Assembly: GCA_001824295.1 (NCBI GenBank) | Contig: MHWY01000002.1 | Coordinates: forward strand, 73,354 to 137,353 | Direction: 5' to 3' | DNA length: 64,000 nucleotides | DNA from: Candidatus Zambryskibacteria bacterium RIFOXYD1_FULL_40_13 | Lineage (GTDB): Bacteria > Patescibacteriota > Minisyncoccia > Phycocordibacterales > DATDWN01 | Shown here: in pieces, positions 9,289 through 64,000 of the stretch | How positions within the stretch are numbered: the first letter of the stretch is position 1 | Layout of the letters: each line of letters starts with the position of its first letter | The notes under the pieces: model-generated | Database searches by the model: none | Told to the model about the DNA's origin: nothing | Seen by the model: only the letters and a program-made list of their open reading frames with translations | Made by a program: the position numbers and the translations under genes

Positions 9289-9771
9289 ATGTCACAACTA
9301 TTATCAAAGGTTACAAGTGCATTATCAAGCGATATTGTTTTTTTGGCATTTTTGTTTTTGGTATTCTTTATTTGTGTGATGTATTTTGGCAAAAACAAGA
9401 TGGCTACAATGCTCATCGTTTTTTATCCTGCAGTATTTGTATTTGGAAATATTCCGTTTCTAAGTAAATTAGTTTTTATGAGTGGGGAACGCGGAGTTTT
9501 ATTAAGTAAGTTTATTGTGTTTGTGGCGGTATTTGCTCTAATATATTTTGCAGTAAACAAGTATTTCATAACCTTCAACGAGCCGTCTGGTTTTCTTGGA
9601 AAAGCTGGTCTATCTCTGGGTTTACTCATAGCTTTTGTAGTTTTTTCTTATAAAGTTGTTAGTTTGGATTTCATTCATAACTTTTCTGGCTCAGTTGATA
9701 CCATCATAACGGGCGGGAATAGGGAATTTTGGTGGGGAATTGCTCCCCTAGCCATTTTGGCATTTTTCTAG
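9289..9771 (+). CDS. Hypothetical polytopic membrane protein
   Basis: The 160-aa product contains several hydrophobic helices. Confidence 0.55.
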   Translation: MSQLLSKVTSALSSDIVFLAFLFLVFFICVMYFGKNKMATMLIVFYPAVFVFGNIPFLSKLVFMSGERGVLLSKFIVFVAVFALIYFAVNKYFITFNEPSGFLGKAGLSLGLLIAFVVFSYKVVSLDFIHNFSGSVDTIITGGNREFWWGIAPLAILAFF

Positions 9772-9908: not shown

Positions 9909-10101
9909 AGTGTGATATACTATACCTAACTCAGTAGATCTGAGTTTTTCCGTCAGTTCCAGCTATTTGTTAGCTTCGAGATGGAGGATAAGAGGTAGCT
10001 TACCCCTTAGCTTATCTTGGAGTGAATAAACCAGGTGGAGCAGACCACGATAGAATTAACATCTAATTTTAGACTTTATTTTAAATTTTACAGCAGCTGG
10101 T
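9909..10101 (+). promoter_or_regulatory. Sigma70-like promoter (TTGACA-18-TATACT) plus a ~160-nt structured leader upstream of the Rpf-like gene. Candidate riboswitch or attenuator.
   Basis: The promoter is ttgacagagtggtgcttagtgtgatatact. The leader starts with the hairpin ctcagtagatctgag followed by TTTTT, and then has GC-richer segments (gatggaggataagaggtagcttacccc, ccaggtggagcagaccacg). Confidence 0.3.
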
Positions 10102-12486: not shown

Positions 12487-13779
12487 TTATATTGCTGGAA
12501 AATAAGCCAGTGGATCGAGATATGCCTTGACATCAGCAAGTGGCATTGTTACTTGTTTACAGCCAATACTATTTACATATTTCTCTATACGTACTCCTTG
12601 CGTAGCATAAAGACTAATATGGAGGTGTGGCCCGGTAGAATACCCAGTATTTCCACTATATCCAACTAGGTCTCCAGTTTTCAATCGTTGCCCGACTGAA
12701 CTACTTATAACCGATAAATGTCCATAAATGGTGGATAGGCCGTTATCATGTTTTATCATTACCCATTTACCAAATGAGTAACATCCAGGGTACAAATCCG
12801 TGTTTCCCGTGCCAACCACAACTCCATCTAATACGCTTTTAACTTTAGTACCAACACTTGCTCTAAAGTCAACACCGTTGTGACTTCCTGAAACATAAAG
12901 TTTCTTTGCATCTACAGTTTTACCAAACTTTTGGGTTATATAGACATTGTCCAATGGCCAAGAAATCACACCATGCTTTTCAGCGGGGTACCAACTTGAA
13001 TTTATAGTCATATTAAGCTGGGATTCATATTCATACACCTCTCTTTCAAACTGGGCCTTCTGCTCTTCTCTCGTTTTAACTAATTCCTTAAATGTTTCTT
13101 CTTTATTTTTAGTTTGAGCTAGTAAGGTTTCCTTTTCCTTGGCAGTGTATATTACTGCCTGCTTTTTGCCATTCAAATCCTGTTTTAGGTTTAACAAACT
13201 TGTTTTCTGGCCAGTGAGACTATTTTGTTTTACTTGCATATCGTTCTTCAATACCGCCAATTCCTTTGAGCGTTTCCTAATAACATCTCTTGTTTCCTCT
13301 ATTGAATTGATTTCGTTCCAAATGTCACCCAAATTCTTTTTGGATAGCATAATTTCCACAATGCTTGTTTTTTCAAGCATTTGCGTATCCTGAATTGCAT
13401 CAATTATTACTTCCTTATTAACGTCAATACTATTCTGGGTTTTTTTGATTTCATCACCTAGTTGCTCTATTGTTAGAACTGTTTTGTTTATTTTATTCTC
13501 GGTAAGATTTATATCTGTTCCAATCTTTTTCTTTGTCAGGTCTAGGGTTTTTAGAGTATTTTTCAGGGTTACAGCCTGTTTTATTGAATTATCTACCTCA
13601 ATATTATACTGCCTTATTTCCTCCTCAAGCTGTTTAATTTGGCTAGTTCTTTCTTCAATTTTAGTCACTAAATCGGTGGTGGTATCCTCTGCAGAAACAT
13701 TTTGCACTAAGGCAAGACAAAAAATCACAACTATCAAAAAGGAAACTGTTTGGGTTATCTGTTTTTTTACCTGATTCAT
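12487..13779 (-). CDS. M23-family peptidoglycan endopeptidase with an N-terminal coiled coil (EnvC-like)
   Basis: The product has a signal peptide, long coiled coils, and a C-terminal M23 (LytM) domain (HNGVDF...GNTGYSTGPHLHI). Confidence 0.85.
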   Translation of the reverse strand: MNQVKKQITQTVSFLIVVIFCLALVQNVSAEDTTTDLVTKIEERTSQIKQLEEEIRQYNIEVDNSIKQAVTLKNTLKTLDLTKKKIGTDINLTENKINKTVLTIEQLGDEIKKTQNSIDVNKEVIIDAIQDTQMLEKTSIVEIMLSKKNLGDIWNEINSIEETRDVIRKRSKELAVLKNDMQVKQNSLTGQKTSLLNLKQDLNGKKQAVIYTAKEKETLLAQTKNKEETFKELVKTREEQKAQFEREVYEYESQLNMTINSSWYPAEKHGVISWPLDNVYITQKFGKTVDAKKLYVSGSHNGVDFRASVGTKVKSVLDGVVVGTGNTDLYPGCYSFGKWVMIKHDNGLSTIYGHLSVISSSVGQRLKTGDLVGYSGNTGYSTGPHLHISLYATQGVRIEKYVNSIGCKQVTMPLADVKAYLDPLAYFPAI

Positions 13780-25450: not shown

Positions 25451-26017
25451 CTAAACTCGAGATGGATCACGAATGTCCTCTTCTTTCACGATGACTTGGT
25501 CAAGCAACCCAAGTGAGAGAGCATCACCCACGGGTAGCTGACAGTCAAGCTCGCACATTTTACGAATTTCTTCGTGCGATCTTCCTGTTCGGTTGACGAG
25601 AATTTCGTCGAGTTTTTTCTGGTCGGCCTCCATCGAATTGATGTAATCGGCAAGCATCATCGGATCTCTTGCCACATCAAGCCTGAACGCAGTACTTGTA
25701 ATGTGGTGGACCAGTATTCTGGAATGGGGCGTTGCTGTGCGCCAATCACAAGCCTGGAGAATCACTCCAGAGATTGAGTTTGCAATGCCATTCACAATAC
25801 CAATCTTATGTCCGACGTAGAACCTCAACAGATCGAAGATATCAAGTCCGGCAGTTACGTTACCGCCCTTACTTGTTATGTAGATCGTAATTGGCGGGGA
25901 GCCTCTTATGAGGAGGTTCCAAATCGCCGAGGATACGTACGCATGGGTTTCTGTCGTGACTTCTCCAGAGATGGACAATCGGTTCTGCGACAGAGCAATC
26001 GCTTGATCCTGTGTCAT
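25451..26017 (-). CDS. ClpP/S14-family serine peptidase (GC-rich, acquired-looking)
   Basis: The product contains ITSKGGNVTAGLDIFD (a ClpP signature), a candidate Ser (GIANSISG) and a candidate His (ILVHHI). It has an AGGAGG SD. The GC content is about 50% or more, against a backbone of about one-third. Confidence 0.75.
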   Translation of the reverse strand: MTQDQAIALSQNRLSISGEVTTETHAYVSSAIWNLLIRGSPPITIYITSKGGNVTAGLDIFDLLRFYVGHKIGIVNGIANSISGVILQACDWRTATPHSRILVHHITSTAFRLDVARDPMMLADYINSMEADQKKLDEILVNRTGRSHEEIRKMCELDCQLPVGDALSLGLLDQVIVKEEDIRDPSRV

Positions 26018-26099
26018 GGGGCCTGCCTCCTTGGGGGTGTACGGTCTAAGCTAACAATATGTGAGTTCAAAATTTTAGTCAAATATCGTGCATGTTTAG

Positions 26100-26134
26100 A
26101 CAAAAGAAATCCGCCACCCAAAGCTGGGTGGCGG
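26100..26134 (-). terminator. GC-rich intrinsic terminator after the ABC exporter (ccgccacccagctttgggtggcgg + TTTCTTTTG on the minus strand)
   Basis: A perfect hairpin plus T-tract lies directly downstream of the gene ending at 26148. Confidence 0.6.
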
Positions 26135-26147
26135 AAATTTACGCAAC

Positions 26148-28028
26148 TTACACAACAATTCCCTGGTCGTCAGCGAGCATCTTGAAAGTTCTGGAGATGC
26201 CGTAGAGTTCCTCAAACGACGAGGCTACTGCCTCAACCTGAGTGTCGCCATTTGTCAGCTCGTCGCTAGACCTGAGAACGACAAACTTGTCGCAGAGGTG
26301 CCTAACAGTAGAGAGCCGATGAGCAATGACCACCGCTGTGACATTCCCCGACAGAAGCTTCTGTAGCCCGGCCTGAACAAGCCTCTCGGTAGTTGAGTCC
26401 AAGCTTGATGTGGCTTCATCGATGAGCATCATTCGAGGACGCTTGATAGCGGCAGCTCCGATGATGAGCCTCTGTGCTTGCCCACCAGAGAGCTTGATTC
26501 CGTTTGTGCCAACTTCGGTATAGATGCCGTTCGTCAGACGCTTTCCGAAGTCAATCTGGAGGTCACGCATGAGGCTCCAGATTTCTGGGTCACCCATTTT
26601 CTGCTTTTCCTCATCACTGAGTGCATATGTCAGGTTGTAGCGGATACTTCCGTCGAAAATCTGAGCCTGCTGTGGAATGTATCCGAGAGTTCTAATCCAC
26701 GATGCGGAGTTGACCTGTCTCATGTCAATTCCGTTCACTAGGATTTTGCCGTTTGACGGATCCATCGAACGCAAGAGAAGTCGGGCCAAGGTTGACTTGC
26801 CTGCTCCTGACTGGCCGATGATTGCCACCTTCTGCCCAGCGTCTACCGCGAAGCTTACGCGCTGTAGTGCGTGTGGGTTTTCCTCTTCGTCTGTACTATC
26901 CAAGGTGGGGCCGTGTTCCGGGTATGTGTACGACACATCCTGGAACTCAATTGCTATCGGAGCATCCTGGAGGATTTCCACGCAACCCTCTGCATCCGTA
27001 GCTTCAGGTGGTATGGACAATGCCTCTATCTTGGCTTTGACGGCAGGCATGTTCCAGTTAATCATGTGTTCAATCCTGCCGATTTGCCACACACTTGATA
27101 CGATGGTACTTGTCCACATGAAGATAGGATACAAGTTGCCGATGTTCATGTGACCCTGCCACACCTGCCATGTGCCATAGCTAATGACAGTCATGAAGGC
27201 AAGCATGGTCGCAGTATCGCGAAAGGCGTTGTGCTTGATGAACCAGAGCCAGAACCTACGGTCATCCTTGAGGTTGTCGGCAAACTCGACCGACATCTCG
27301 CGAAGTTCCCTTGTGGACATGCCACTGGTCTTAACTCTCTCCACCTTGGACCATCGGTCAAGTCGCCTACGATTGAGAACACGGAAACGCTTGTCGATGT
27401 TTGTGCACTCCAAAACCACCTTGTGGTTAAGAAAGAGTGTCCATGTGATGTAAACCACGAACGAGAGACTGATTGCCAAACCAGAGACCGGTGAGACAAC
27501 CCAGATGAGAATGTAGGCAACCAGAAGAGTTGATAGAACCTGAAAACCTTCGAACAGGAGAAGCCCTTGAAGGTCTAGGAGTTTCCACCGACCCTTGTCA
27601 ATGTTGCCAACATTCAGAGTGCCACTGTGCTCAGCGTGTTGCCCCAAGGACTTCTCGAACATCATCCGTGTGATGTAGTCGTCGAGTGTACCCTGGAGAT
27701 AGCCAAGTATGAGCTCTCTGTAGGTGGCCTGCTTGAAGTGAAACAGTTTCTGGATTGCCATGAGCGCGAATGTCACGGCAATCCCTACCGCCACATACTC
27801 CCGACTTTTCTCCGCGAGACCGCGGAAAATTAGTGAGATTGTGAACGGGATTGTCATTTGAGTCAGGATGTTTGCGGACATGTAGCTAAACATTCTCCGC
27901 AACCATTTCACCTGCTCAGGCGATTCCAGAAACCTCCAAGTCCAAACAAGAACCCTTAGGGATTCCTTTGCACTTGAAAGGTATTCGGTAATCGTGGCCG
28001 GCGTTTTTTCTCTGTCATCGAAGTCCAT
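26148..28028 (-). CDS. ABC exporter with fused permease and ATPase (GC-rich island)
   Basis: The product has six N-terminal TM helices plus Walker A (GQSGAGKST), the ABC signature LSGGQAQR and Walker B (MMLIDEATS). The start was moved to ATG 28028 (MDFDD), which has AAGGAGG upstream. Confidence 0.85.
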   Translation of the reverse strand: MDFDDREKTPATITEYLSSAKESLRVLVWTWRFLESPEQVKWLRRMFSYMSANILTQMTIPFTISLIFRGLAEKSREYVAVGIAVTFALMAIQKLFHFKQATYRELILGYLQGTLDDYITRMMFEKSLGQHAEHSGTLNVGNIDKGRWKLLDLQGLLLFEGFQVLSTLLVAYILIWVVSPVSGLAISLSFVVYITWTLFLNHKVVLECTNIDKRFRVLNRRRLDRWSKVERVKTSGMSTRELREMSVEFADNLKDDRRFWLWFIKHNAFRDTATMLAFMTVISYGTWQVWQGHMNIGNLYPIFMWTSTIVSSVWQIGRIEHMINWNMPAVKAKIEALSIPPEATDAEGCVEILQDAPIAIEFQDVSYTYPEHGPTLDSTDEEENPHALQRVSFAVDAGQKVAIIGQSGAGKSTLARLLLRSMDPSNGKILVNGIDMRQVNSASWIRTLGYIPQQAQIFDGSIRYNLTYALSDEEKQKMGDPEIWSLMRDLQIDFGKRLTNGIYTEVGTNGIKLSGGQAQRLIIGAAAIKRPRMMLIDEATSSLDSTTERLVQAGLQKLLSGNVTAVVIAHRLSTVRHLCDKFVVLRSSDELTNGDTQVEAVASSFEELYGISRTFKMLADDQGIVV

Positions 28029-28116
28029 CTCACTCCTCCTTCTACACAAGCCCTAATTGTTGTTGAAGTTGTCAAAGAACTACTGTATCAGAGCAAAGCT
28101 CGATACACGGAAACTT

Positions 28117-28142
28117 AAAACGCCGCAGTACGCGGCGTTTTA
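28117..28142. terminator. Hairpin aaaACGCCGCagtaGCGGCGTttta (bidirectional-looking)
   Basis: A perfect GC stem is flanked by A/T runs between the methyltransferase gene and the ABC-exporter island. Confidence 0.35.
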
Positions 28143-28366
28143 AGTCTTCGAAGAAATTTTAGTTTCAAACACTTAGAACACAGCGTAATCTTTCCACATT
28201 GTTTGCGGAATTATATTTATTTGGAAGCACGATGAAAGAGACAAGCCCTTTTCTGCACGTGTTCCAGATATTCTTTTGGTTACGCAAGTTTTTCATTGCC
28301 TATTTATCATACATAAAATTAATTAAAAGTCAATCTAGTTATTGACAGATGATAAAGTGCAATATT

Positions 28367-29050
28367 TTAACTCTTTCCCAAATAGCATATCCAGAAGTTT
28401 CTTTTATACACACGGTTGTTTATTCTTGAGTAGCTAGTTTTTTTCTCAAGATTAAAAATTACAAAATATTTCTCATAAAAAGAGATGAGATCATCTTTAC
28501 TCCAAACTCTTTCTGTAACGCCGAGACCTGGCATTATGTATGTATCTTTCTCTTTTCCAGGATTATTTTTAAGTAGGTATTTTGCATTTGCATCCCCATC
28601 TTTACACAGAGCTTTCACAAGAAAATATCCACCCACTTTCAGCACTCTATTGGTTTCAGATAAATATATCTCTCTTTCCCCTTCTGATAAGGAATTTGAA
28701 GATGTAACATCTAAAACAATGTCGACTGATTCATCTTCTAGTGGAAATTTCTCTCCGATGCTTTGTTTAACATATTTTATATTCAGTCTAGCCTTCTTAG
28801 AATTCTCATTTGAAATCTGAATGGCAGTTTTAGAGATTTCAAGACCAACCACACCTGCCCCCATTTCAGCAAAATAAAAACTGTTTCTCCCCGCACCGGA
28901 GCCCAAATCCAAAACTCTGCATTTAGCAAGCTCTACCCCCTGTTTTCTTAAAAATTTAGTAAACCTAACCACATCCGACTGTGGTTTATTGTCCTTTGTC
29001 AGAAGTTTAGATTTTATATATTCCCTATCCCAGGCAAGCTCTTGTGACAT
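28367..29050 (-). CDS. Class I SAM-dependent methyltransferase
   Basis: The product has motif I (VLDLGSGAGRNS). The gene is AT-rich like the backbone. Confidence 0.8.
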   Translation of the reverse strand: MSQELAWDREYIKSKLLTKDNKPQSDVVRFTKFLRKQGVELAKCRVLDLGSGAGRNSFYFAEMGAGVVGLEISKTAIQISNENSKKARLNIKYVKQSIGEKFPLEDESVDIVLDVTSSNSLSEGEREIYLSETNRVLKVGGYFLVKALCKDGDANAKYLLKNNPGKEKDTYIMPGLGVTERVWSKDDLISFYEKYFVIFNLEKKTSYSRINNRVYKRNFWICYLGKS

Positions 29051-29096
29051 AAAGCAATTGTAACACAGAGTAGTTTCCTGTATATTTTAGTAACAC

Positions 29097-29648
29097 ATGG
29101 CTTTTTTGTACCTCATTTTTCTCCTAGTTGCCTTCTTTCTCTCTATTTTTTTTGTATTCTTTATGCTGGCCCAAACCATATCGACCTTGCTTGGTGATGT
29201 ACCATATATTCCAATTCCAAAGATTACTGAGAAAAATGTAATTGAGGTTCTCAAACTTGATAACAACAGTGTGTTCTATGATTTGGGCTGTGGTGATGGT
29301 AGAGTTCTATTGAGAGCAGTCGAACAATTCCCTCAAATCAGAGCAGTGGGGGTTGATATTGGTTTTATACCATTTTTTTTGGCTAAATTTTATATAAGAA
29401 AGTATAAAAATATTAGTATAAAAAGAGAAAACATATATAAGACCGACATACATGATGCCACGCACATTTTTCTCTATCTCTATCCAAAAGTTGTAGATAG
29501 AATATTTGTTAATATACTCAAGCAGTGCAAACCAGGCACAAAAATCGTATCCTGTGATTTTGAGCTAATAGATGTCACCCCTACTGAGATAATTAACCTA
29601 GAAACAAAAGCCCTAAGAGGAAAAACCCTTTTTGTTTATACTTTATGA
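29097..29648 (+). CDS. Membrane-anchored class I SAM-dependent methyltransferase
   Basis: The product has an N-terminal TM helix and motif I (DLGCGDGR). Confidence 0.7.
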   Translation: MAFLYLIFLLVAFFLSIFFVFFMLAQTISTLLGDVPYIPIPKITEKNVIEVLKLDNNSVFYDLGCGDGRVLLRAVEQFPQIRAVGVDIGFIPFFLAKFYIRKYKNISIKRENIYKTDIHDATHIFLYLYPKVVDRIFVNILKQCKPGTKIVSCDFELIDVTPTEIINLETKALRGKTLFVYTL

Positions 29649-29687
29649 GGTATAATGATGGCTTTATTAATATCTAGATAATTAATT

Positions 29688-30443
29688 ATGAACTACATTT
29701 TATTTTCTAAAAACGAATTATTCCGAGAGGGTGCTGAAAAAATTAAAATAGAAGCCCAAAAACAAAACAAACAATGTGAAGTTTTGGAGATACATAGCAT
29801 TACAAAAAATGGCATTTTAAGACAAAAGATTGATAATACTTCCTTGGTTTATTTTTTAACGAATGATGTATGTATACCAGAATATATAGAACTATTGAAA
29901 AAAAAAGGGGCTTATATTGTTAATGAGGCTCCCTTATCTGGAGACCTGAAAAAATACATACTTCAAAATAAGGTAAAGAATAACGGAGTACGTGTCCCTA
30001 AAAATATATGTTTATCTAGTGACAAGGAAACAGGCAGGCTTAATCTAAAGTACCCTGTTTATATTAAAAGTCAAAAACAAGGAAGTTTGGTTATCTATAA
30101 TCTAAATCCAGATGAATTAAATAAAAACATAATATCTATAGGCAACATAAATGAATTTTATTTTGAGGAAGCGGTCGAAATAAAGGGTTTTGTACTAAGA
30201 AAATTCTACTATATTAAGGAAGTGATTATTGACATGGATAAAAAAAATACGGATCCTGTGCCAGATTGGCTATATATAGTCTTAAAAAATATCTCATTAT
30301 CGTTAAAATTAGAAGTTTTTTCTTCTGACATTTTTGTAAATTGGTCCAGCCAAGAATATTTCTGTATTGATATCAACCCAGCTTCATCATTTTTTAAATC
30401 TGAAAAAGCTCGCAAAGAATTTGTTAGAAATATTTTAATATAA
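29688..30443 (+). CDS. ATP-grasp-like protein (tentative)
   Basis: The arrangement of K-rich strand motifs and the C-terminal D-x-N region (CIDINPASSF) resembles ATP-grasp ligases. The assignment is weak. Confidence 0.45.
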   Translation: MNYILFSKNELFREGAEKIKIEAQKQNKQCEVLEIHSITKNGILRQKIDNTSLVYFLTNDVCIPEYIELLKKKGAYIVNEAPLSGDLKKYILQNKVKNNGVRVPKNICLSSDKETGRLNLKYPVYIKSQKQGSLVIYNLNPDELNKNIISIGNINEFYFEEAVEIKGFVLRKFYYIKEVIIDMDKKNTDPVPDWLYIVLKNISLSLKLEVFSSDIFVNWSSQEYFCIDINPASSFFKSEKARKEFVRNILI

Positions 30444-31117
30444 TGACTTGGCCAGAAATATATAAAGCAAAAATTGCAAAAAAGGGTGGTTTACTACCTT
30501 TTATATTAAATAAAGAAAAAAGATCAGCTGGTGCATTAATAACTAGGTTGAAGAAAAAATTAAAACCTGAATCAAAAATACTAGAAATAGGTACTGGAAC
30601 TGGAGCTATTGGTGCTTTACTTATAAAACACGGTTTTGATGTTACTGGTATAGATATTGATGAAGAAATGATAAAAATTGCAAAAAAATCTTTTAAATTA
30701 TTTGGAAATCATAATAAAGTTTTTGTAATGGATGGAAATAACATAGTTAGTAGATTTAGAGAGAATTCTTTTGACTGTGTCATAACCCACGGAATGCTAG
30801 AACATTATTCCAATGAAGATATATATCTCCACATTAGTAATCAATTAAAAATTTCACCACTTACTATATGTGTTGTCCCCATGAAAGCAATGTCACCACT
30901 TTACCGTTCTGGTGGGTTAGGGGACGAAAGATACCTTCCAACTAGCTATTGGAAAAGGTTATTGTCAAAAAATTTTCACATCCAGAGTATTTATGGATAT
31001 GGCTTCAAAGAAACAAATAGTATACACCTGTCTGAAAAAATAATTAGGATAAATATTTTAGCAAAAATTTTTGCTCCACTTTGTGCTTTCAATGAGTTTT
31101 GGATTACTAAGAAGTAA
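30443..31117 (+). CDS. Class I SAM-dependent methyltransferase
   Basis: The product has motif I (ILEIGTGTG) and downstream motifs. Confidence 0.8.
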   Translation: MTWPEIYKAKIAKKGGLLPFILNKEKRSAGALITRLKKKLKPESKILEIGTGTGAIGALLIKHGFDVTGIDIDEEMIKIAKKSFKLFGNHNKVFVMDGNNIVSRFRENSFDCVITHGMLEHYSNEDIYLHISNQLKISPLTICVVPMKAMSPLYRSGGLGDERYLPTSYWKRLLSKNFHIQSIYGYGFKETNSIHLSEKIIRINILAKIFAPLCAFNEFWITKK

Positions 31118-31523
31118 CTACACTATTAACTATGGATGATACGTTCCTAAAATAGTTCTTTAGATTATCGTAACTAAGCTTTTCAATGACTTCATCCTTT
31201 GATACCCACATAATAACATCCCCTTCGAGCTCTAATCTAAGTTGTGTGTCATCGTTAGAACTAACCAGAAACATTTTTGTAGAAATACAATTTCCGTTAG
31301 AATGAATGTACTCCATATCAGGTAAGGGTTTTATTACATTTACAGTTAAGCCGGTTTCCTCTTTCATCTCTCTGACCATTGTTTGGGTTGAATTTTCTCC
31401 TAGATCAACATGACCCTTGGGAAAAGACCAGTCTTTTTCCCTGCCTCTATATAACAATGCTATGTTATTTTTATTCTCGCTACTCAAAATTATAGCTCCG
31501 GCTTTTTGTATTTTTTCAGACAT
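31107..31523 (-). CDS. NUDIX hydrolase
   Basis: The product has the Nudix box GHVDLGENSTQTMVREMKEETGL. The start was moved to MSEKIQK. Confidence 0.75.
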   Translation of the reverse strand: MSEKIQKAGAIILSSENKNNIALLYRGREKDWSFPKGHVDLGENSTQTMVREMKEETGLTVNVIKPLPDMEYIHSNGNCISTKMFLVSSNDDTQLRLELEGDVIMWVSKDEVIEKLSYDNLKNYFRNVSSIVNSVVTS

Positions 31524-31539
31524 AAAATAAAAGAAAAGT

Positions 31540-31585
31540 GACCCCTTTATCTTATCAAAGGGGCCACTTGGAGTCAAAGAAGATG
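31540..31585 (-). terminator. Intrinsic terminator after the P-loop / radical-SAM operon (CCCCTTTgataagatAAAGGGG + TCACTTTTCTTTTATTTT on the minus strand)
   Basis: A 7-bp stem is followed by a long T-tract. It lies between the end of the GC-rich island and the Nudix gene start. Confidence 0.55.
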
Positions 31586-31596
31586 CCACCAGTACA

Positions 31597-32124
31597 CTAG
31601 ATCCTACCTGACGACTTGAGATGATCCACTAGCGCGTCGGCCTCGAGTGCCCGGAGTGCCTCGCTGGCAACTCCGCTAAACGACCACTCAACCTGAGCGA
31701 GCAAGCATGTCTGGTGGCTGTGCCAGAAACGCTCACGCTTAATATCGAGCGCCATGTCCTCGGGGGTGCTTCGAGACAACCTGCATTTCTTGGGAACAAC
31801 GACACTCACCAACAAAGCCTCGGGCTCAATTTCAAGTACAGCCTTCCACTCATCAGGTGTGTGAATCGCGTCAAGCAGAACCACATCCTTTGAGTTTCGA
31901 TCGTACTTCATCAGCCTGAGAAGATGGTGCATGATTTCGTAACTCCCCATGTTGTGGTAGAGATCACGATACCATTCGGTGAACACTTCCTCGTTGTTGT
32001 CGATTGACGACCATTCGCGAAGAAGTTCTCTCTTCACAACATGTCGCCAACTGTAGTTATTAACAAAGAACTCCGAGAGATCACTCTTCCCAGAGCTGTG
32101 ATAACCAGCTATCCCGATGATCAT
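31597..32124 (-). CDS. P-loop NTPase/kinase-like protein (GC-rich island)
   Basis: The product has Walker A GIAGYHSSGKS at its N-terminus. It overlaps the upstream radical-SAM gene by 4 nt. Confidence 0.65.
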   Translation of the reverse strand: MIIGIAGYHSSGKSDLSEFFVNNYSWRHVVKRELLREWSSIDNNEEVFTEWYRDLYHNMGSYEIMHHLLRLMKYDRNSKDVVLLDAIHTPDEWKAVLEIEPEALLVSVVVPKKCRLSRSTPEDMALDIKRERFWHSHQTCLLAQVEWSFSGVASEALRALEADALVDHLKSSGRI

Positions 32125-33314
32125 TTTGACCTCATGAAATGGAGAGGTTGGACATCACTGCTCTTCAACGCCAGTGCGATCGCGAGACAGTTTGTCTTCG
32201 GTCCGGAAGTGGAAGAGTTGTAGCCGGGTAGCAGGAACCTCATGGACTCAATGTGTTGAGAGTCAACGAGTTTTCTCCAAACCCCAGAAAACCGCTCGTT
32301 CACGAGATTGCCGACCGACATTTCACCGAGCGGACCAAGAAAGCCACAGGTTTGCACATTGCCGTCTGGCAGAACCACCATTCCACGGTGACCTGCACTA
32401 CACGACTGACGTTCAAATGGAAGTGAAATCCGTGGTGCAACCTTGTCGTCCTTGATGTAGTGACCACGAACGTGCTTTGTCGAATCTGATGTCAAATGTC
32501 CGAGCCTCTTCCTCAGAACTTCATACTCTTCCTGAGAGAGCATTTCGCCTGACATGTTGTCTGCACGACCAGCAGGAATCAACCTGCGAATCATGACCGG
32601 CACGCTCAGATTTGAAAAAAACTCGGTAACGCGAACCACTTCATCAATGTTACTCTTCATGACGACAGTGTTCACCCTGACTGGGATACCGACATGTTTG
32701 AGCTCGATTATCCCCTTCATCGTTTTTCTGAAGGAACCAGCGCCTCTGATTGAGTCGTGAACACTCCTCATGCCATCAACACTAACGACGGCCAGGTTAA
32801 GACCAACATCTGCAAGTCTCCTTGCGATATCAGGCTTCACCAGTATGCCATTTGTGCCGATTGACGTTCGAAGACCATTGCGTCGCAGGAGCCTAATGAT
32901 GTCGTACACGACGTTGACCACGAGAGGTTCTCCGCCAGTGAGACGAACCTCTTGGACTCCAGAATTAATGAGATCTTGAACCAACCTAAGCCTTTGTGCG
33001 TCGGACATCTCGTTCGACATACGCCTACCTGAGTTGTTAAAGCAGAATGTGCAATTGATGTTGCACGCTCTGGTGATCTCAAAAAAAATGGTATCCGGTG
33101 CGCTGAAGTTGTTGCCCGGCAGGTAGGACGGCTCACGAATGAGCACGCTGTCCGTCGATAACTGAATCTCTCGCTGGAGATGTTCAGGTACACTACCGGA
33201 CTGAGAGATCGACTCGTACTCGTCTCTATTAATGTATGCGCGCTTGCCTGAGTCCGAATTAAACAGTGTACCACCAAAGACTTCTTTTCGAAGCAGTGCT
33301 TGTCCCTTAGTCAT
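32121..33314 (-). CDS. Radical SAM enzyme with a C-terminal SPASM-like Cys cluster and a ~90-aa N-terminal extension
   Basis: The product has CNINCTFC (CxxxCxxC) and a later Cys-rich segment (CSAGHRG...VQTCGF). The start was moved to ATG 33314 (MTKGQ), which has an AGGAGAG SD and lies downstream of a TTGACA-17-TATTAT promoter. Confidence 0.85.
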   Translation of the reverse strand: MTKGQALLRKEVFGGTLFNSDSGKRAYINRDEYESISQSGSVPEHLQREIQLSTDSVLIREPSYLPGNNFSAPDTIFFEITRACNINCTFCFNNSGRRMSNEMSDAQRLRLVQDLINSGVQEVRLTGGEPLVVNVVYDIIRLLRRNGLRTSIGTNGILVKPDIARRLADVGLNLAVVSVDGMRSVHDSIRGAGSFRKTMKGIIELKHVGIPVRVNTVVMKSNIDEVVRVTEFFSNLSVPVMIRRLIPAGRADNMSGEMLSQEEYEVLRKRLGHLTSDSTKHVRGHYIKDDKVAPRISLPFERQSCSAGHRGMVVLPDGNVQTCGFLGPLGEMSVGNLVNERFSGVWRKLVDSQHIESMRFLLPGYNSSTSGPKTNCLAIALALKSSDVQPLHFMRSK

Positions 33315-33386
33315 CTTTACTCTCCTCTGAATGTTAATGTGCGAACAACCACAAGAAAATCCTGTGGTTATTTGTTTTCTAGCCAA

Positions 33387-57232: not shown

Positions 57233-57300
57233 CCCGGTAGTAGATTTTGCCATTGCTCTTTCAGAGCGGGCAAAGCCCAATGTCAAAATTCACTACCGGG
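57233..57300. repeat. Palindromic element copy 3 (CCCGGTAGTAGATTTTGCCATTG ... CAATGTCAAAATTCACTACCGGG)
   Basis: The 23-bp inverted repeat has a 22-bp spacer with nested hairpins (gctctttcagagc; gggcaaagccc). The right arm overlaps the last codons and supplies the TAG stop of the 916-aa gene. Confidence 0.6.
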
Positions 57301-60043
57301 TTTTATACTTACTTAAAATATTTTCTTCTATCTCCTTCCTGTCCCCACCATAAGTCAAATACGAAAGCTGTCTTAGAGAGTCCATTATTTCTGGATTGCC
57401 CTTTGGGGGAAAACCCTCTTTAAAGTTAAAGGCCTTTGTTGTCTTTCCACCGACAAGCATTTTTATATAGGCACTAAGGTTATCTATATTCATAATATCT
57501 TTTGCTGTAAATACTGGACTGAATTGTTTTTCTAGGAATTCTGCATCTTCTGCTCCAACCCGGAAGGAAACGATAGAGCCCACATTTCCAAAAACAGCAT
57601 CACGAATATCTTCTTGTAGTTGAGCGATAAACTGGTGGGCAATATTTAGTGACAACTTATATTTTCTAGCTTCAGAAAGAATAGTTGAGATTGAGTCTGT
57701 GGTAATGTTCTGAAACTCATCGATGTATAGATAAAATGGTGGAAAATCCTTGCCGAGCGAATCAACGCGAGAAAGAGCGGCCATCAAAATCTTACCCACA
57801 AGAATAAGTCCAATAAGGTTTGCATTTATATCGCCAAGTCTTCCTTTCGATAGGTTTACAAGTAAAATCTTTTTGTTATCCATTATCTCTCGGAAATCAA
57901 ATGATGATTTTTCTTGAGCAATAATCGGACGCATAATATCATTTGCAAGAAAGACATCAAACTTACTTGTGATATAGGGAACAATGTTTGCAAGTGACGC
58001 TTCCCCACCAGCCTTTTCTGCCACCTCTGTCCAAAACTGAACCACCACAGGATTCTTGCATCGAGAAATTTTCAAATCGCGGAAGGCTTTGTTCGTCATA
58101 ACTCTAGAAACATCAAGCAGTGTACAACCACTATCTGGGTCTTCTATGACAAGCATCGTAGCGTTTCTGAAATACTGTTCAAACATAGGACCAAGGGACT
58201 CGGGTACTCCACCATACAACTTTTGGAAGATACTAAACAACTCGTTAACAACAAAGGTCTTCTGTTCTGGGTGTGACCTATCGTATTCAAGCATATTGAG
58301 GGCCATTGGTCTCTCTGTGTGGCTTGGGTCAAAATATATGACATCGTGAAAGCGTTCTTGTGGAATGTTAGCGAGTATATCCTGAACATCACTGCCGTGC
58401 GGGTCAATAAAACAACATCCCTTTCCTGCATTAATATCTTGGATAATCATATTTTTTAGGAATACGGTTTTTCCGGTTCCTGTCTGCCCTATAACATAAA
58501 CATGCCTTAGTCTGTCATCGTCACGCATGTATATCGGTGTTTCAATATTACGATAACTGTTTGTGCCCAGAAATGTACCTTCTGTGCCCATCTCGGCAGG
58601 AGGTGGGGCAAATATGGCCTGGGTTTGTTTAAGCTGTGGAGTTGCATCAAGAGCTGAATTCTGGAAATGAATGACTGATGATATCTCGTGAAGATTGAGT
58701 GGCAGAAGCTGTGTCTCATCATAACTTCTGAAAGAGAAAGCCCTAAACATTTTTTGCAATGCAGTTTTATCAAGTCTCTTTGGTTTAAGTCCATTTGCAG
58801 ATGGGTCTGTAAACTGGTTGAAACTTGATTCCAGTCCACGCAGAATCCTCTCTGCATCTAACCTACTCTGGGCAGAAGCTATAAGACGAATGTTTGTGGC
58901 AACAATAGTACTTGCCATTTTCTGTTTTATTTTCTGTATTGCCTCTGTGTCTATTGGCTTTTTCTCCTCACCTTCCTTTGGGGGCGCTTTAAACAAAGAA
59001 AAAACAGTCTTTTTGAATTCGCCCGTTATTGTTTCTGGTAAATCTACGGCTTCTTTCAATGGCACACCTTTCTCTATCTGATCTATGGCATATTTGTATT
59101 TCTTATGGAAATAGTCCTCTTTTGGAGCAAAAACAATTTGAATCCCAGCCCCCTCTCCATTTTTCTGAATCTTTGAAAAACTATTTAGAATAATGTTGAG
59201 TGGGTCGTGGTCAAAGCTCTCATATGTTTTGAATGGATAAATCGGGTTATTGGTTGACTCCAGGTATGACCCTAGCGAGATACCGTCTTGATTGAATATG
59301 TTGTAATCAGATGTTGCCTCGGTCAGCTTGGCATTACTGAAAACAGCCACGATCTGCTTTTCAAACAAGGCCTTGTAGGCATTTGGAACAGAAACATAGA
59401 AAACAAACTGGTCACTGCCATTTGCGTTGGCAATTTCTAAAACGATATAATTCTTCTTGTAGTTCTTTGTATCATCCTTGGAAATAACAGAGAGCATTCC
59501 AGACAGAAACTGCTCCATGCTGGAAATAAGTTCTTTCAGAGGTTTGCTCTTTTCCTTTCCATCCAAATCAAGGTCCTCCGGCAAGACAACTTCATAAAGT
59601 GTCATTCCGAGTCCACGAAACTCTTCATCTGATATGTTGAGACCCTTCGCATCATAACCATGCTTCAAATACTGAGTAAGGAAACGATGGAAATCATCTT
59701 CTAGATGTGGGTCTTTGAATCCAGCTAAAACTGACATAGTATTTTTTATGCCATTTTCGCTTAGGATGCTCAATAATTCTTCTATTTTCTTGTCATGGGT
59801 TTCTGGCTCAAGATTCAAAACAATTGATTCCATATTGGCCTTGGCCATAGCATAAGTATCATCTAAAACTTGGGTTGGTAAAATGTTTTTATAGCGTTCA
59901 ATTTCCCCCTTAACAACATCATCAATTTTGTAATCTGCCTTAGTCGTGCGAAGTTCAAGTTCCTTATTTGAAATCTGCTCACGCAAGAAAGCTATTTCTT
60001 CCTCTGGACTAGTAAAGTTAAGACCTTCAAGATTTTTCTCCAT
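57293..60043 (-). CDS. Large soluble P-loop ATPase. The C-terminal ~400 aa are VirD4/TrwB/TraD (type IV coupling protein)-like; the N-terminal ~500 aa are unknown.
   Basis: The product has Walker A VIGQTGTGKT and IDPHG...YFDPS (cf. TrwB VDPNGD). LYIDEF...KYKLSLNIAHQF...QLQ matches the TrwB Walker B/arginine-finger region. No N-terminal TM helices are evident. Confidence 0.7.
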   Translation of the reverse strand: MEKNLEGLNFTSPEEEIAFLREQISNKELELRTTKADYKIDDVVKGEIERYKNILPTQVLDDTYAMAKANMESIVLNLEPETHDKKIEELLSILSENGIKNTMSVLAGFKDPHLEDDFHRFLTQYLKHGYDAKGLNISDEEFRGLGMTLYEVVLPEDLDLDGKEKSKPLKELISSMEQFLSGMLSVISKDDTKNYKKNYIVLEIANANGSDQFVFYVSVPNAYKALFEKQIVAVFSNAKLTEATSDYNIFNQDGISLGSYLESTNNPIYPFKTYESFDHDPLNIILNSFSKIQKNGEGAGIQIVFAPKEDYFHKKYKYAIDQIEKGVPLKEAVDLPETITGEFKKTVFSLFKAPPKEGEEKKPIDTEAIQKIKQKMASTIVATNIRLIASAQSRLDAERILRGLESSFNQFTDPSANGLKPKRLDKTALQKMFRAFSFRSYDETQLLPLNLHEISSVIHFQNSALDATPQLKQTQAIFAPPPAEMGTEGTFLGTNSYRNIETPIYMRDDDRLRHVYVIGQTGTGKTVFLKNMIIQDINAGKGCCFIDPHGSDVQDILANIPQERFHDVIYFDPSHTERPMALNMLEYDRSHPEQKTFVVNELFSIFQKLYGGVPESLGPMFEQYFRNATMLVIEDPDSGCTLLDVSRVMTNKAFRDLKISRCKNPVVVQFWTEVAEKAGGEASLANIVPYITSKFDVFLANDIMRPIIAQEKSSFDFREIMDNKKILLVNLSKGRLGDINANLIGLILVGKILMAALSRVDSLGKDFPPFYLYIDEFQNITTDSISTILSEARKYKLSLNIAHQFIAQLQEDIRDAVFGNVGSIVSFRVGAEDAEFLEKQFSPVFTAKDIMNIDNLSAYIKMLVGGKTTKAFNFKEGFPPKGNPEIMDSLRQLSYLTYGGDRKEIEENILSKYKTR

Positions 60044-60496: not shown

Positions 60497-61009
60497 CTAA
60501 CCCACGAAGCCTAGTTTCTTAAAGTGTTCATATCCCTCTACAAACGCGCACCGATGCGACCTGTAGAGGTTTGCTACATCATGGAGGTCTTTCACCTCTT
60601 CCCACCTCGGCGGGTAGAGCTTTTGGTCGCCGTCGATTTTGTACTTGCCTCGACGCAGGTTACCTGTGCAGTCACCGAACTTCACTGCATAGAAGTACCT
60701 CTGAATACGACCTAGCCTCGCACGAGAGTAGCACACGAGGTCTACTTTCACACTGGGTCCAACGATAAGCCCAGTCTCCTCCCGAATCTCTCGACGAAAG
60801 GTGGTAACTGGATCTTCATCTTCGGGCTTGGGTGGGAGATTTCTCGTCCCGCCTGGATACATCGGGCGGATTGTCTGGGAATACTTTGGATCCAAGGACT
60901 CTGAATCCTGTATTAGCTGATACAGCTTATACAGGCCAGTAGTCTCATCCAACTTGTAATCCCAGATAATCCCAAAGGATGCCCACTTTTCTGGCTCTTT
61001 CCTGCGCAC
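60497..61009 (-). CDS. GC-rich NUDIX-fold protein, ~170 aa (GTG start with AAGGAGG SD)
   Basis: The product has the Nudix-box-like PEDEDPVTTFRREIREETGL (E-x7-REIREETG). The GTG at 61009 has AAGGAGG 4 nt upstream. The track ORF start at 61084 lies in an AT-rich promoter-like sequence. Confidence 0.5.
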   Translation of the reverse strand: MRRKEPEKWASFGIIWDYKLDETTGLYKLYQLIQDSESLDPKYSQTIRPMYPGGTRNLPPKPEDEDPVTTFRREIREETGLIVGPSVKVDLVCYSRARLGRIQRYFYAVKFGDCTGNLRRGKYKIDGDQKLYPPRWEEVKDLHDVANLYRSHRCAFVEGYEHFKKLGFVG

Positions 61010-61162
61010 TTGGCCTCCTTGGTCTATTCTGGGACACCCCAGATTCCCACATATAAGGATACAATACTTATAATATAAAGTCAATAAGGTAGTTAAATTT
61101 GCTAATTTAGGCGAAATTGCTTTGATTTATATGTGTAAAATGTTATAGTTTTTTAGTTCAGT

Positions 61163-61234
61163 TGGCCCTATCGTCTATCGGTTAGGACGGAGCCTTCTCA
61201 AGGCTCAAAGCGCAGTTCGATTCTGCGTAGGGTC
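61163..61234 (+). tRNA. tRNA-Glu (anticodon CUC)
   Basis: The fold was derived by hand: acceptor stem GGCCCTA/TAGGGTC, a 3-bp D-stem as in tRNA-Glu, anticodon stem GAGCC/GGCTC with loop TTCTCAA (U33, CTC, A37), and T-stem CGCAG/CTGCG with loop TTCGATT. No CCA is encoded. Confidence 0.8.
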
Positions 61235-61544
61235 ACACGAAGCGTAAAGTAGGCAAACTGCTTTGCCTGCAAGCGAGTGTGAAACCGCAGTCATGTCTCG
61301 CCAACAGGCGGACAGACGAGGTGAGGTCGACAAGTACTTACATTTTTTGTGAGCTTCGCGAAACAAAAAATTTAGTAACTTGTGATCACATAGACTCCGC
61401 ATACGAAACATACAAATTATTTGACTCTTTTACTAAGTAAATGGTGACTTACCCTATTTTTCCCCAAAATAGAGTTAGGCATTAGATTGTTTTACCTCGT
61501 CAATACCATTCGCAATTTGGAACCAAAAGAGCTATATTATTCCT

Positions 61545-63119
61545 ATGTCTAGAAAAATAATTGAGAAAATTAAAATCAAGAATTTTAAAAGATTTAAGGA
61601 ATTCGAAATTAAGTTTAATGATTCAATTAATTTATTAATTGGAGACAACGAATCAGGGAAAAGTACAATTTTAAATGCTATAGATCTTGTATTAAGTGGT
61701 AGTAGAAGCAAAGTGGAAAGTTGTGGTTTAGATAACATGTTTAATAGTGAAGCAATAAGAGATTTTTTAGCCTCAGGTAAAAAATATGACGATCTTCCAA
61801 CGCTTTATGTTGAATTATATTTTAATGACCAAACAAATAAAGATCTAGATGGTAAGAATAATTCAGATGGAGTTAAGACACATGGCTTAGCACTTCGATG
61901 TGAGCCAAGAGATGACCTAAGTGGAGAAATAAAAGATATTCTAAAACAGAAAGAGAGTAATTTTCCATTTGAATTCTATTCAATAACATTCAAAACTTTC
62001 GAAGGCAGTAGTTATACTGGTTACAGAAAATTTATGAGTCATCTCCTTTTGGACAGTACAGAAATAAATCATGAATATGCAACCAAATCCTATATCAAAA
62101 CTCTTTACAATAATACTGTTGTTGACGAATCAGAAAGAAATAGACATCAAAATGAATACAGGAAACACAAGGAAGCCTTTAAGGATAGCGTGCTAGTTGA
62201 CCTTAATTCAAGAGTAAGTTCTGACGAATACTCTTTCTCAATTAGAAATAATTCTAAGGCAAATTTAGAAACTGATCTAACAATAAAGGAGGGAGATATT
62301 GATTTAGAAAATCGAGGAAAAGGAAGACAATGTTTTATAAAAACAGAATTTGCACTCCAGAAAAATCAAAAGGAGCTTGATGCAATTCTAATTGAAGAAC
62401 CCGAGAACCATCTCAGTCACATCAATATGAAAAAATTAATTGATATGATAAATAAATCAGAAAATAAGCAATTATTTATCACTACTCATAGTAATTTAAT
62501 TAGTTCTAGGCTTGATCTAAGAAAGTCCATTTTGCTGAATAGTAATAGCACAATCCCTATTCTACTTGATCAACTGCCAGAAGACACAGCTAAGTTTTTT
62601 ATGAAAGCACCTGATAATAATATTCTTGAATTTATATTTTCGAAAAAGGTAATTCTTGTAGAGGGTGATTCTGAGTTTATGTTAATGGAATGTTTTTACA
62701 CTAATACAACCTTCAGTAAACTTGAAAATTCTGATATTCACGTAATTTCAGTAGGAGGTACAAGTTTTAAACCTTATTTTGATATTGCAAAAGAATTAAA
62801 AATAGAGACAGCGGTTATAACAGACAACGATGGAAATTATCAAGAAAATTGCGTAAATAGGTATTCAGGTTACAAAGATACAAACATGGCAATTTTTTCT
62901 GAAACTGATAACAAAATATCAACTTTTGAAATTTCGTTATATCAAAACAATACAAAAATTTGTGATGAATTATTCAAAACAGGTAGAAGAACACTCTCAG
63001 TGCAAGATTATATGCTTTCAAATAAAACAAACTGTGCTTTCGAGCTACTTGAAAAAAAATCAACCGAAATTAAAACTCCAAAATATATTGAGCATGCTAT
63101 TCAATGGATAAAAAAATAA
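61545..63119 (+). CDS. gajA: OLD-family ATP-dependent endonuclease (ABC-type ATPase plus Toprim), GajA-like
   Basis: The N-terminus has IKNFKRFK...LIGDNESGKSTILNAIDL (Walker A), followed by LIEEPENHLSH...FITTHS (Walker B/D-loop). The C-terminal Toprim is VILVEGDSEF...VGGTSF...ITDNDGN. Confidence 0.8.
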   Translation: MSRKIIEKIKIKNFKRFKEFEIKFNDSINLLIGDNESGKSTILNAIDLVLSGSRSKVESCGLDNMFNSEAIRDFLASGKKYDDLPTLYVELYFNDQTNKDLDGKNNSDGVKTHGLALRCEPRDDLSGEIKDILKQKESNFPFEFYSITFKTFEGSSYTGYRKFMSHLLLDSTEINHEYATKSYIKTLYNNTVVDESERNRHQNEYRKHKEAFKDSVLVDLNSRVSSDEYSFSIRNNSKANLETDLTIKEGDIDLENRGKGRQCFIKTEFALQKNQKELDAILIEEPENHLSHINMKKLIDMINKSENKQLFITTHSNLISSRLDLRKSILLNSNSTIPILLDQLPEDTAKFFMKAPDNNILEFIFSKKVILVEGDSEFMLMECFYTNTTFSKLENSDIHVISVGGTSFKPYFDIAKELKIETAVITDNDGNYQENCVNRYSGYKDTNMAIFSETDNKISTFEISLYQNNTKICDELFKTGRRTLSVQDYMLSNKTNCAFELLEKKSTEIKTPKYIEHAIQWIKK

Positions 63120-64000
63120 TATTAGCTGTTGCTGGTTCTGGCAAAACCAGTCTTATAATAGATAATTTAAATTTGGAAAAGAGATTTTTACTAGTTACTT
63201 ACACTATTAGTAATACTAGAAATTTGAGAAGTGGAATTATAGAAAAATTTGGGTACTTCCCAGATAACATACAATTATATTCTTATTTCCCGTTTTTATA
63301 TGGCTTTTGTTTTAAGCCCTTTCTATCATACAAGTTAAAAGTTAAGGGTATATTTTGGGATTTTCCACCTGAACATACTTTCAAAAAAAGAAGAGATGAT
63401 CTTTCTTTTTATTTAACAGAAGGAAGAAGATTATATCACAACAGAATTGCAAAACTATTACAAGAATTAAATGTATTAGATGATATTAATGAAAGACTGG
63501 AAAAATACTACGACTGTTTATTTATTGATGAAATTCAAGATTTTGCTGGGCATGATTTTGATTTATTAAAAAGCCTTGTAAAGGCAAAGCTTGAAATTCA
63601 ACTAGTTGGGGATTTTCACCAACACACCTTTGATACCAGTAGAGATGGTACAACAAATAATGATTTACATAATAATTACGAAGAATATATAAAAAGCTTT
63701 GAGCAAATGGGTGTTAGGCCAGATACAAAACATCTAAATAAAAGTTGGAGATGTACCCCAACAATCTGTAATTTTATTACTGAAAATCTTGATATAGAAA
63801 TTTATTCACATAAAAGTAATACATCTATCGTTAAACTTATCTCTAACCCAAAAACAATTGAAGAAATTTTCAATGACAACACAATAGTGAAATTGTTTTA
63901 TCAAGAAAGTACTAAATACGCATGTTTTTCAAGGAACTGGGGAGATTCAAAGGGAGAAAATCAATTTCAAGATGTTTGTGTAGTGCTTAATAAAAATACA
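63104..64000 (+). CDS. gajB: UvrD/PcrA-family helicase, GajB-like (3' truncated by the window end). Not in the ORF track.
   Basis: The ATG at 63104 overlaps the gajA stop by 16 nt. The product begins MDKKIILAVAGSGKTS (Walker A) and has LFIDEIQD (motif II) and LVGDFHQ (motif III). The frame is open to position 64000. Confidence 0.7.
   Translation, partial: MDKKIILAVAGSGKTSLIIDNLNLEKRFLLVTYTISNTRNLRSGIIEKFGYFPDNIQLYSYFPFLYGFCFKPFLSYKLKVKGIFWDFPPEHTFKKRRDDLSFYLTEGRRLYHNRIAKLLQELNVLDDINERLEKYYDCLFIDEIQDFAGHDFDLLKSLVKAKLEIQLVGDFHQHTFDTSRDGTTNNDLHNNYEEYIKSFEQMGVRPDTKHLNKSWRCTPTICNFITENLDIEIYSHKSNTSIVKLISNPKTIEEIFNDNTIVKLFYQESTKYACFSRNWGDSKGENQFQDVCVVLNKNT

Follow-up and report, generated by a model that had tools for sequence, protein, structure and literature searches.

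The window considered in this study, a stretch of 64,000 nucleotides (nt) of Candidatus Zambryskibacteria bacterium RIFOXYD1_FULL_40_13, closes with a tRNA-Glu gene (anticodon CTC) followed on the forward strand by two overlapping genes, gajA and gajB, which resemble the two genes of the Gabija defense system. The tRNA-Glu gene occupies positions 61164 to 61236 (ARAGORN; Rfam RF00005, 52.5 bits), gajA spans positions 61545 to 63119, and gajB starts at position 63104, with an overlap of 16 nt (63104 to 63119), and continues to the end of the window at position 64000. A preliminary description of the same DNA had reported the upstream tRNA, an open reading frame (ORF) of the OLD family, a UvrD-like ORF overlapping it by 16 nt and, in the latter, the motifs AVAGSGKTS, FIDEIQD and LVGDFHQ; all of these were found in place, the motifs falling at amino acids (aa) 8 to 16, 140 to 146 and 167 to 173 of GajB, respectively.

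The window contains the first 299 of the 354 codons of gajB, without a stop. The 3' end of the gene, located 168 nt past the window, was read from the public contig, here referred to as L001, which includes the locus with 10 kb on either side and was taken from the 306-kb ENA scaffold ANAN16-1 scaffold_24 (window coordinates correspond to L001 coordinates plus 51544; the complete gajB lies at 11560 to 12624 of L001). The exact GajA protein is recorded in 76 blocks of the collection, with the same neighbors in the 24 contigs read, from which it follows that the locus is not an assembly artifact.

Domain organization and distribution of the gajA-gajB pair

The product of gajA (524 aa) is assigned by PADLOC, Pfam and Foldseek to the class 2 OLD family, with an N-terminal ABC ATPase and a C-terminal Toprim nuclease domain. 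In particular, it matches the PADLOC profile PDLC00102 with an E value of 2e-115, residues 5 to 521 aligning with positions 2 to 531 of 532, and the GajA model of 580 positions (PDLC00078) with an E value of 3e-38. Pfam recognizes OLD-like_TOPRIM at aa 364 to 429 (E value of 7e-21) and AAA_15 (E value of 8e-19), together with AAA_23/SMC_N at the N terminus. The conservation of the catalytic motifs was judged on alignments of 22 family members, for GajA and GajB separately. In GajA, we could notice the invariance of G33 and G38-K39 in the Walker A motif (G33-DNESGK39-ST), of E284 to L290 in the Walker B region (I-E284-E-P-E-N-H-L290), of T314-H315 in the H-loop (TH315S), and of the Toprim residues E373, G405 and D427-N-D429. 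Judging from the motif order and the Pfam Toprim alignment, E373, G405, D427 and D429 appear to match the active-site residues E379, G409 and D432/D434 of Bacillus cereus GajA (PMC10781630).

The AlphaFold2 (AF2) model of GajA has a predicted local distance difference test score (pLDDT) of 65 overall and above 85 in the Toprim domain. Among the Foldseek matches of this model in the PDB, the best are the B. cereus GajA chains 8U7I, 8SM3 and 8X5I (E values of about 1e-14), followed by the class 1 OLD nuclease of Thermus, and the longest solved chain has 626 residues. The B. cereus GajA is 578 aa long, compared with the 524 aa of the protein in the window.

The complete gajB encodes a minimal UvrD-like helicase/NTPase of superfamily 1A (SF1A), identified by PADLOC and by its motifs. 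The PADLOC profile PDLC00148 is matched with an E value of 5e-54, residues 1 to 335 aligning with positions 1 to 354 of 369, and the fragment contained in the window reaches 2e-48 against the PADLOC GajB; the Pfam UvrD-helicase domain is also recognized (E value of 1e-7). The assignment to a Gabija-like pair proposed in the preliminary description is thus confirmed by the PADLOC matches of both proteins, which are far stronger than chance would give, in agreement with Pfam and with the predicted folds. The same description had envisaged that the second gene, once complete, might lack the helicase motifs IV to VI. This objection falls, since all the motifs are present in the 354-aa protein and invariant in the 22 sequences, namely, motifs I (A10-G-S-G-K-T15), Ia (T32-Y-T..N37), II (D142-E-x-Q-D146), III (G169-D..Q173), IV (S214-x-R216), V (N278-W-G280..K283-G284) and VI (Y320-V-A322..R325).

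The structure of GajB was modeled through an orthologue with 86% identity (P0121), for which AF2 returned a pLDDT of 89 and a predicted template modeling score of 0.84. The model is that of an SF1A helicase core, and its ten best structural matches include Rep, UvrD1, PcrA, viral SF1 helicases and the GajB chain 8TK1_F. In the GajB of B. cereus (494 aa), the second RecA-like core is interrupted by a C-terminal accessory subdomain at residues 314 to 416 (PMC10681800), whereas the 354 aa of the protein described here leave no room for such a subdomain of 103 aa. Since motifs IV and V are only about 60 residues apart and the P0121 model has no inserted domain between them, the 2B-like subdomain is absent, and the four-subdomain layout of B. 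cereus (1A, 1B, 2A and 2B) is not reproduced. The helical insertion of the first core is present at aa 61 to 137 and corresponds to the 1B subdomain, which in B. cereus makes the contact between GajA and GajB (PMC10781630). The consensus of the short-form family is about 343 aa long and, because PADLOC files these short proteins under GajB, the 2B-like subdomain characterizes the B. cereus type but is no part of the GajB family in its database definition.

Neither gene is disrupted, their translation is coupled, and no catalytic motif has been lost. In metagenomic loci with a GajA of 45 to 70% identity and at least 900 nt of downstream sequence, gajA overlaps in every case (65 of 65) with a short gajB directly downstream, over a GC content ranging from 25% to 65%. 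The adjacent arrangement also occurs in two further loci, L082 (described below) and L084, and in a plasmid locus, L165, where a pair of 520 and 340 aa with a 16-nt overlap, annotated as "AAA family ATPase" and "DNA helicase UvrD", directly follows vapBC on a conjugative IncFII plasmid of Edwardsiella anguillarum (NZ_CP094310.1, 57688 to 60257).

More generally, the short-form subfamily counts thousands of members in Bacteroidota, Campylobacterota and Proteobacteria and on plasmids, and the pair is common on enterobacterial conjugative plasmids. GajA-like matches, all below 60% identity, occur in 2392 plasmid records (1501 conjugative), and close short-form relatives on plasmids show 46 to 49% identity. 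The phage records and IMG/VR contained essentially no GajA-like matches and no close relatives, so that nothing here points to a phage-borne origin. P0001 (89% identity), encoded at L082, was the sole close homologue of GajA among 5.8 billion clustered proteins, and the next-closest named homologues (72% identity at most, about 70%) belong to the Bacteroidota Aequorivita, Bizionia, Cellulophaga and Echinicola. A scan of metagenomes returned no additional copies of the pair in the Candidate Phyla Radiation (CPR).

Acquisition of the cassette

With a neighboring protein of 916 aa as the query, we retrieved 80 species-level relatives of the host, all of them Patescibacteria, the closest being labeled Zambryskibacteria, Parcubacteria or Paceibacteria. 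The host itself, a groundwater bacterium with a tiny genome, belongs to the CPR as a Zambryskibacteria-like Paceibacterion. In the closest relatives, the gene order is MraZ-RsmH-FtsL-PBP-MurF-[variable]-DAGK-916aa-YqeY-RmuC-L21-RecR-DnaB. The tRNA-Glu(CTC) is found at the syntenic locus in 12 of the 12 relatives checked, sometimes inverted, and the sequences diverge right after the ...GGGTCAC of the tRNA in all the relatives compared. This tRNA is a conserved landmark, with variable cargo at its 3' side in every relative examined. None of the 80 related species carries gajA or gajB at this locus, although the tRNA-Glu and the gene order are conserved in the closest of them, and the locus is therefore not core sequence, as the preliminary description had allowed that it might be.

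The interval between MurF and the 916-aa gene holds a different cargo, of mosaic GC content, in each relative. In nine of these loci (L002, L003, L005, L006, L009, L010, L011, L016 and L046), we observed that the interval is hypervariable, measures 1.5 to 5 kb and contains patches of 50 to 57% GC, with the tRNA-Glu(CTC) inverted in four.

The cassette has a GC content of 29% and a GC content at third codon positions (GC3) of 0.21, compared with 38% and 0.35 to 0.40, respectively, in the backbone. A single counterpart, in a distantly related Paceibacterion, was found in L082 (GCA_023701005.1, contig JAMPXW010000004.1), a locus with 31% GC that also carries the tRNA-Glu(CTC) and in which the gene order MraZ-RsmH-FtsL-PBP-MurF ... 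RmuC-YqeY is as in Paceibacteria. The record is labeled "Burkholderiales bacterium", and the contig is probably a mis-binned or mislabeled CPR sequence.

By blastn, positions 9922 to 12662 of L001, corresponding to 61466 to approximately 64206 in window coordinates, align with positions 9923 to 12662 of L082 with 84.4% identity over 2742 nt and with sharp edges. The two copies of GajA and GajB are 89% and 86% identical, respectively, against 39 to 68% for the backbone proteins. The cassette is foreign to this genome and has passed between two divergent CPR lineages, occupying the same tRNA in both. Furthermore, the ratio of nonsynonymous to synonymous divergence (dN/dS) between the two CPR copies is 0.052 for gajA and 0.067 for gajB, and both genes are under strong purifying selection; the synonymous divergence (dS) is about 1.0, and selection has maintained the copies since the transfer.

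Boundaries and mode of insertion

The island of L082 comprises, 3' of the tRNA-Glu, a DUF218 gene, gajA and gajB, while the islet in the window contains gajA and gajB only. In L082, the 19-mer TAGGGTCACAAAAGCTTAA, which joins the final 9 nt of the tRNA to the 10 nt that follow, occurs twice, at the tRNA end and right after gajB, with 0.01 matches expected by chance. It represents the perfect core of a direct repeat of 73 nt (96% identity), which is followed by a repeat of 103 nt (87% identity), and the first part of the repeated region looks by eye like the sequence that natively flanks the tRNA in L006, a relative without Gabija. An insertion at the tRNA 3' end with target duplication leaves this pattern.

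The direct repeat of the tRNA 3' end that the preliminary description had suggested looking for is strong in L082 and weak in this genome. Here, the homology between the two loci stops at the same GGTCACA as in L082, and a match to the tRNA end lies approximately 194 nt past the window (TGTGGTCACAC compared to TAGGGTCACAC); this match of 9 of 11 nt was recognized only through the homology to the L082 repeat and is not significant by itself, since 6 such matches were found and 3.3 were expected. A search for direct and inverted repeats in positions 9400 to 14500 of L001 returned no copy of the tRNA end of at least 12 nt, and no long flanking repeat was found in this genome. Concerning the integrase that had likewise been suggested as a check, no gene for one and no recombinase domain was called within 10 kb on either side of the cassette in L001 or L082.

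Three parts were distinguished in the sequence between the tRNA and gajA. The first, a GC-rich segment of about 110 nt at positions 61237 to 61345, with no assigned strand and three predicted hairpins, is modestly structured: its RNA fold of -47.7 kcal/mol is better than that of shuffled sequences (z = -3.4, with 1 of 200 shuffles equally good), in line with the structured stretch of about 100 nt noticed in the preliminary description. The segment has no Rfam match at an E value of 1 or lower and nothing similar in the window or in the 164 fetched loci that were compared for repeats and motifs; it is absent from the relatives and unique to this genome. A blastn search with the 230 nt following the tRNA and with the GC-rich 1.2 kb downstream of the cassette retrieved no relatives among all the fetched loci.

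The second part is a conserved noncoding element at positions 61339 to 61424 of the forward strand, to which both copies of the 103-nt repeat flanking the L082 island align. Its core TTAGTAACTTGTGATCACATA, at 61372 to 61392, contains the palindrome TGTGATCACA, and the corresponding motif TTAGTRAYTTGTGAYCACATA is found at the same positions of the window and at 9318 to 9338 and 13126 to 13146 of L082. Among the 164 loci, the core pattern is present in L001, L082 and L083 only, and the element is shared with no genome but the other Gabija-bearing one. It probably traveled with the cassette and may be a regulatory (operator) or recombination site.

The third part, at positions 61466 to 61544 of the forward strand, is the leader of the transferred block, where the DNA homology to the L082 cassette starts. 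It includes a weak sigma-70-like site (61509 to 61538; TTCGCA-18-TATATT, 9 of 12 positions) that is not better than chance, and the promoter and terminator scan gave counts at the chance level.

As for the route of entry, one possibility, which we regard as real though rather unlikely, is that the cassette is not an integrative element targeting the tRNA but ordinary hot-spot cargo, swapped by homologous recombination between conserved flanks (the tRNA-Glu and the dcw/MurF cluster) after DNA uptake, and that the likeness to the tRNA end is coincidental in this genome. The lack of an integrase in both genomes, the hypervariability and mosaic GC content of the MurF interval in the nine relatives, and the poor significance of the tRNA-end match here would all be consistent with such a swap, as would the left part of the island, which differs between the two genomes (the DUF218 gene in L082 and the GC-rich segment in this genome). 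However, the long direct repeats of L082 start precisely within the terminal 9 nt of the tRNA, which points to an insertion with target duplication and not to a double-crossover replacement, and the homologous GGTCACA marks the end of the shared block in L001 as in L082. Insertion by recombination at the 3' end of the tRNA-Glu is the most likely mode, and it could have proceeded through an integrase supplied in trans or through a single crossover of the Campbell type at the duplicated flank of the tRNA.

In this respect, the islet can be compared with cis-mobilizable elements (CIMEs), which are integrase-less islets flanked by attachment sites at tRNA genes. Like CIMEs, it is a small unit 3' of a tRNA with no recombinase of its own, and the repeats of L082 include the tRNA 3' end; different from CIMEs, the repeats are almost erased in this genome.

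The cassette is also surrounded by other sequences of atypical composition. Three ORFs flanking it have GC contents of 0.49 to 0.56 and GC3 values of 0.55 to 0.67; one lies in the window at 60497 to 61084 on the reverse strand, and the other two, on the forward strand, are found just past the window end, at 12726 to 13316 and 13507 to 13833 of L001. One of the three is weakly Nudix-like (E value of 1e-3), the other two have no Pfam or PADLOC match, and the three probably reached the same hot spot as separate acquisitions. The 916-aa protein used above as the query, a DUF8128/TraG-like P-loop ATPase encoded on the reverse strand at positions 57293 to 60043, looks like the product of a core gene, because it is conserved at 51 to 83% identity in more than 80 Patescibacteria species; its weak PADLOC match to mad8 (E value of 1e-12) is probably due to generic P-loop similarity.

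Farther upstream, compositional outliers were also observed in the region from 25451 to 33386, where patches of 50% GC encoding a Clp-protease-like protein, a 633-aa ABC transporter and a radical SAM/SPASM enzyme alternate with genes for three methyltransferases of 29 to 36% GC; this region may represent a peptide-modification and export cluster. The Rfam scans of the whole window and of the GC-rich segment returned nothing besides the tRNA, with a single tRNA in positions 1 to 64000 and no other family at the gathering threshold.

Function and relation to known Gabija systems

On the basis of these data, we are confident, though short of certain, that the locus is a functional short-form Gabija operon carried on an integrase-less islet of approximately 3 kb, 3' of the tRNA-Glu(CTC), in a Zambryskibacteria-like Paceibacterion. 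A role in protection from phages is suggested indirectly by the accessory distribution of the pair, by its horizontal transfer and by the purifying selection acting on both genes. By analogy with the work on B. cereus Gabija (PMC8136825; 10.1101/2023.05.02.539174; PMC10781630; PMC10681800), it is possible to hypothesize that GajA would form a tetramer and dock GajB through the 1B insertion of the helicase, giving a 4:4 complex, and that cellular NTP and dNTP would keep the GajA nuclease silent. Upon phage replication, the lowered nucleotide levels would allow GajA to nick or cleave DNA through its Toprim site, and the resulting DNA ends would stimulate the hydrolysis of (d)ATP and (d)GTP by GajB. 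Further nucleotide depletion and DNA damage would then abort the infection, disabling either the infected cell or the phage genome.

Some of our results weigh against this interpretation. The alignment with the B. cereus proteins suggested in the preliminary description succeeded at the level of fold, as described above, but not at that of sequence: phmmer and profile hmmsearch against the PDB sequences retrieved neither GajA nor GajB of B. cereus, and returned only generic Walker A/Toprim and PcrA/Rep matches. Because the similarity is too low for HMMER, the link to the B. cereus proteins rests on the PADLOC profiles, the fold and the gene order. Moreover, the GajA model is only moderately confident, residues 162 to 339 being poorly predicted. 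The mechanism of B. cereus may not transfer fully, because GajB is devoid of the 2B-like subdomain and any regulation through it cannot apply. Lastly, the tRNA-end match of this genome is weak, as reported above, and the mode of insertion is unproven because no integrase is present.

A different role, which we consider improbable, would be that of an exclusion or maintenance module serving mainly mobile elements, which would destroy competing DNA on its entry (plasmids, transformed DNA or rival islands) instead of protecting the cell from lytic phages. The abundance of GajA-like proteins in plasmid records, with one short-form pair beside vapBC, together with the near absence of the pair from phage records and IMG/VR and its position on a small transferable cassette, would be in keeping with this role. 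However, neither CPR genome shows plasmid or conjugative genes in linkage with the cassette, and exclusion would in any case be compatible with anti-phage defense, which has been demonstrated experimentally for Gabija (PMC10781630).

Still less probable, and very unlikely in our view, is a housekeeping or accessory module of DNA repair or replication, in which an OLD-family ATPase-nuclease would work with a UvrD-like motor on the DNA of the cell itself, given that the pair is missing from 80 related species at a conserved locus, was acquired horizontally with an atypical composition, belongs to a family with a scattered distribution among phyla and many members on conjugative plasmids beside toxin-antitoxin genes, as fits accessory defense better than core repair, and has the PADLOC GajA and GajB models as its best full-length matches, even though UvrD, Rep and PcrA match the GajB model as well as GajB does and one or more archaeal OLD-family classes have been reported to act in cell cycle progression and not in defense (PMC12796447). 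Decay of the pair into pseudogenes is ruled out by the intact ORFs, the invariant motif residues and the dN/dS of 0.05 to 0.07.

Returning to the reading of the pair as a defense operon, its closest counterpart of known structure is the Gabija system of B. cereus VD045 (PDB entries 8SM3, 8U7I and 8J4T), with which it shares the succession of an OLD ABC-ATPase/Toprim gene and an SF1A UvrD-like gene, the Glu, Gly and DxD residues of the Toprim site, the Walker A motif and DEXQD box of GajB (residues as in PMC10781630) and the helical 1B-type insertion of GajB. However, the structural alignments show only about 15 to 17% identity. The class 2 OLD nucleases of Burkholderia pseudomallei and Xanthomonas campestris (6NJV and 6NK8), which have UvrD/PcrA/Rep-like partners, share with the pair the defining association with a helicase, and the C-terminal region of the X. 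campestris protein matches the Toprim domain with an E value of 3e-5; on the other hand, the sequences are not very similar and the helicase of the pair is the shorter one. With respect to the short-form sub-models of PADLOC (PDLC00102/PDLC00098 and PDLC00148/PDLC00140), the matches are full length, the profile lengths of 532 and 369 fit and there is no difference in kind, so that the pair represents a member in an unusual host lineage, the CPR.

The pair is therefore not a new kind of system but a real and ordinary member of a very common defense family, whose short form is already modeled in PADLOC. In addition, the occurrence of an anti-phage system in a reduced-genome bacterium is less noteworthy than the preliminary description held, since Paceibacteria have been reported to have the highest density of defense systems among the CPR classes in groundwater (PMC12259885). 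Of mild interest are the compact, integrase-less cassette common to two divergent CPR lineages and the naturally minimal GajB.

As a tentative proposal, which taken as a whole we hold to be doubtful, the cassette of approximately 3 kb might constitute a minimal, integrase-less mobile defense unit targeting tRNA-Glu. Such a unit would combine the leader element and its palindrome with gajA, gajB and a copy of the 3' end of the tRNA, and would shuttle immunity between CPR lineages after originating from Bacteroidota-like donors. It would be moved by a recombinase acting in trans or by DNA uptake and a single crossover, and the GajB devoid of 2B would correspond to the minimal functional core of Gabija.

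The locus provides a clean and well-bounded Gabija operon in an ultrasmall CPR genome for which the route of arrival is shown, that is, the exchange between divergent Paceibacteria of a 2.7-kb cassette whose nearest outside relatives are found in Bacteroidota. It is useful for understanding how streamlined symbionts sample a shared pool of defense genes, and a natural minimal GajB without the 2B-like subdomain could simplify mechanistic work on Gabija.

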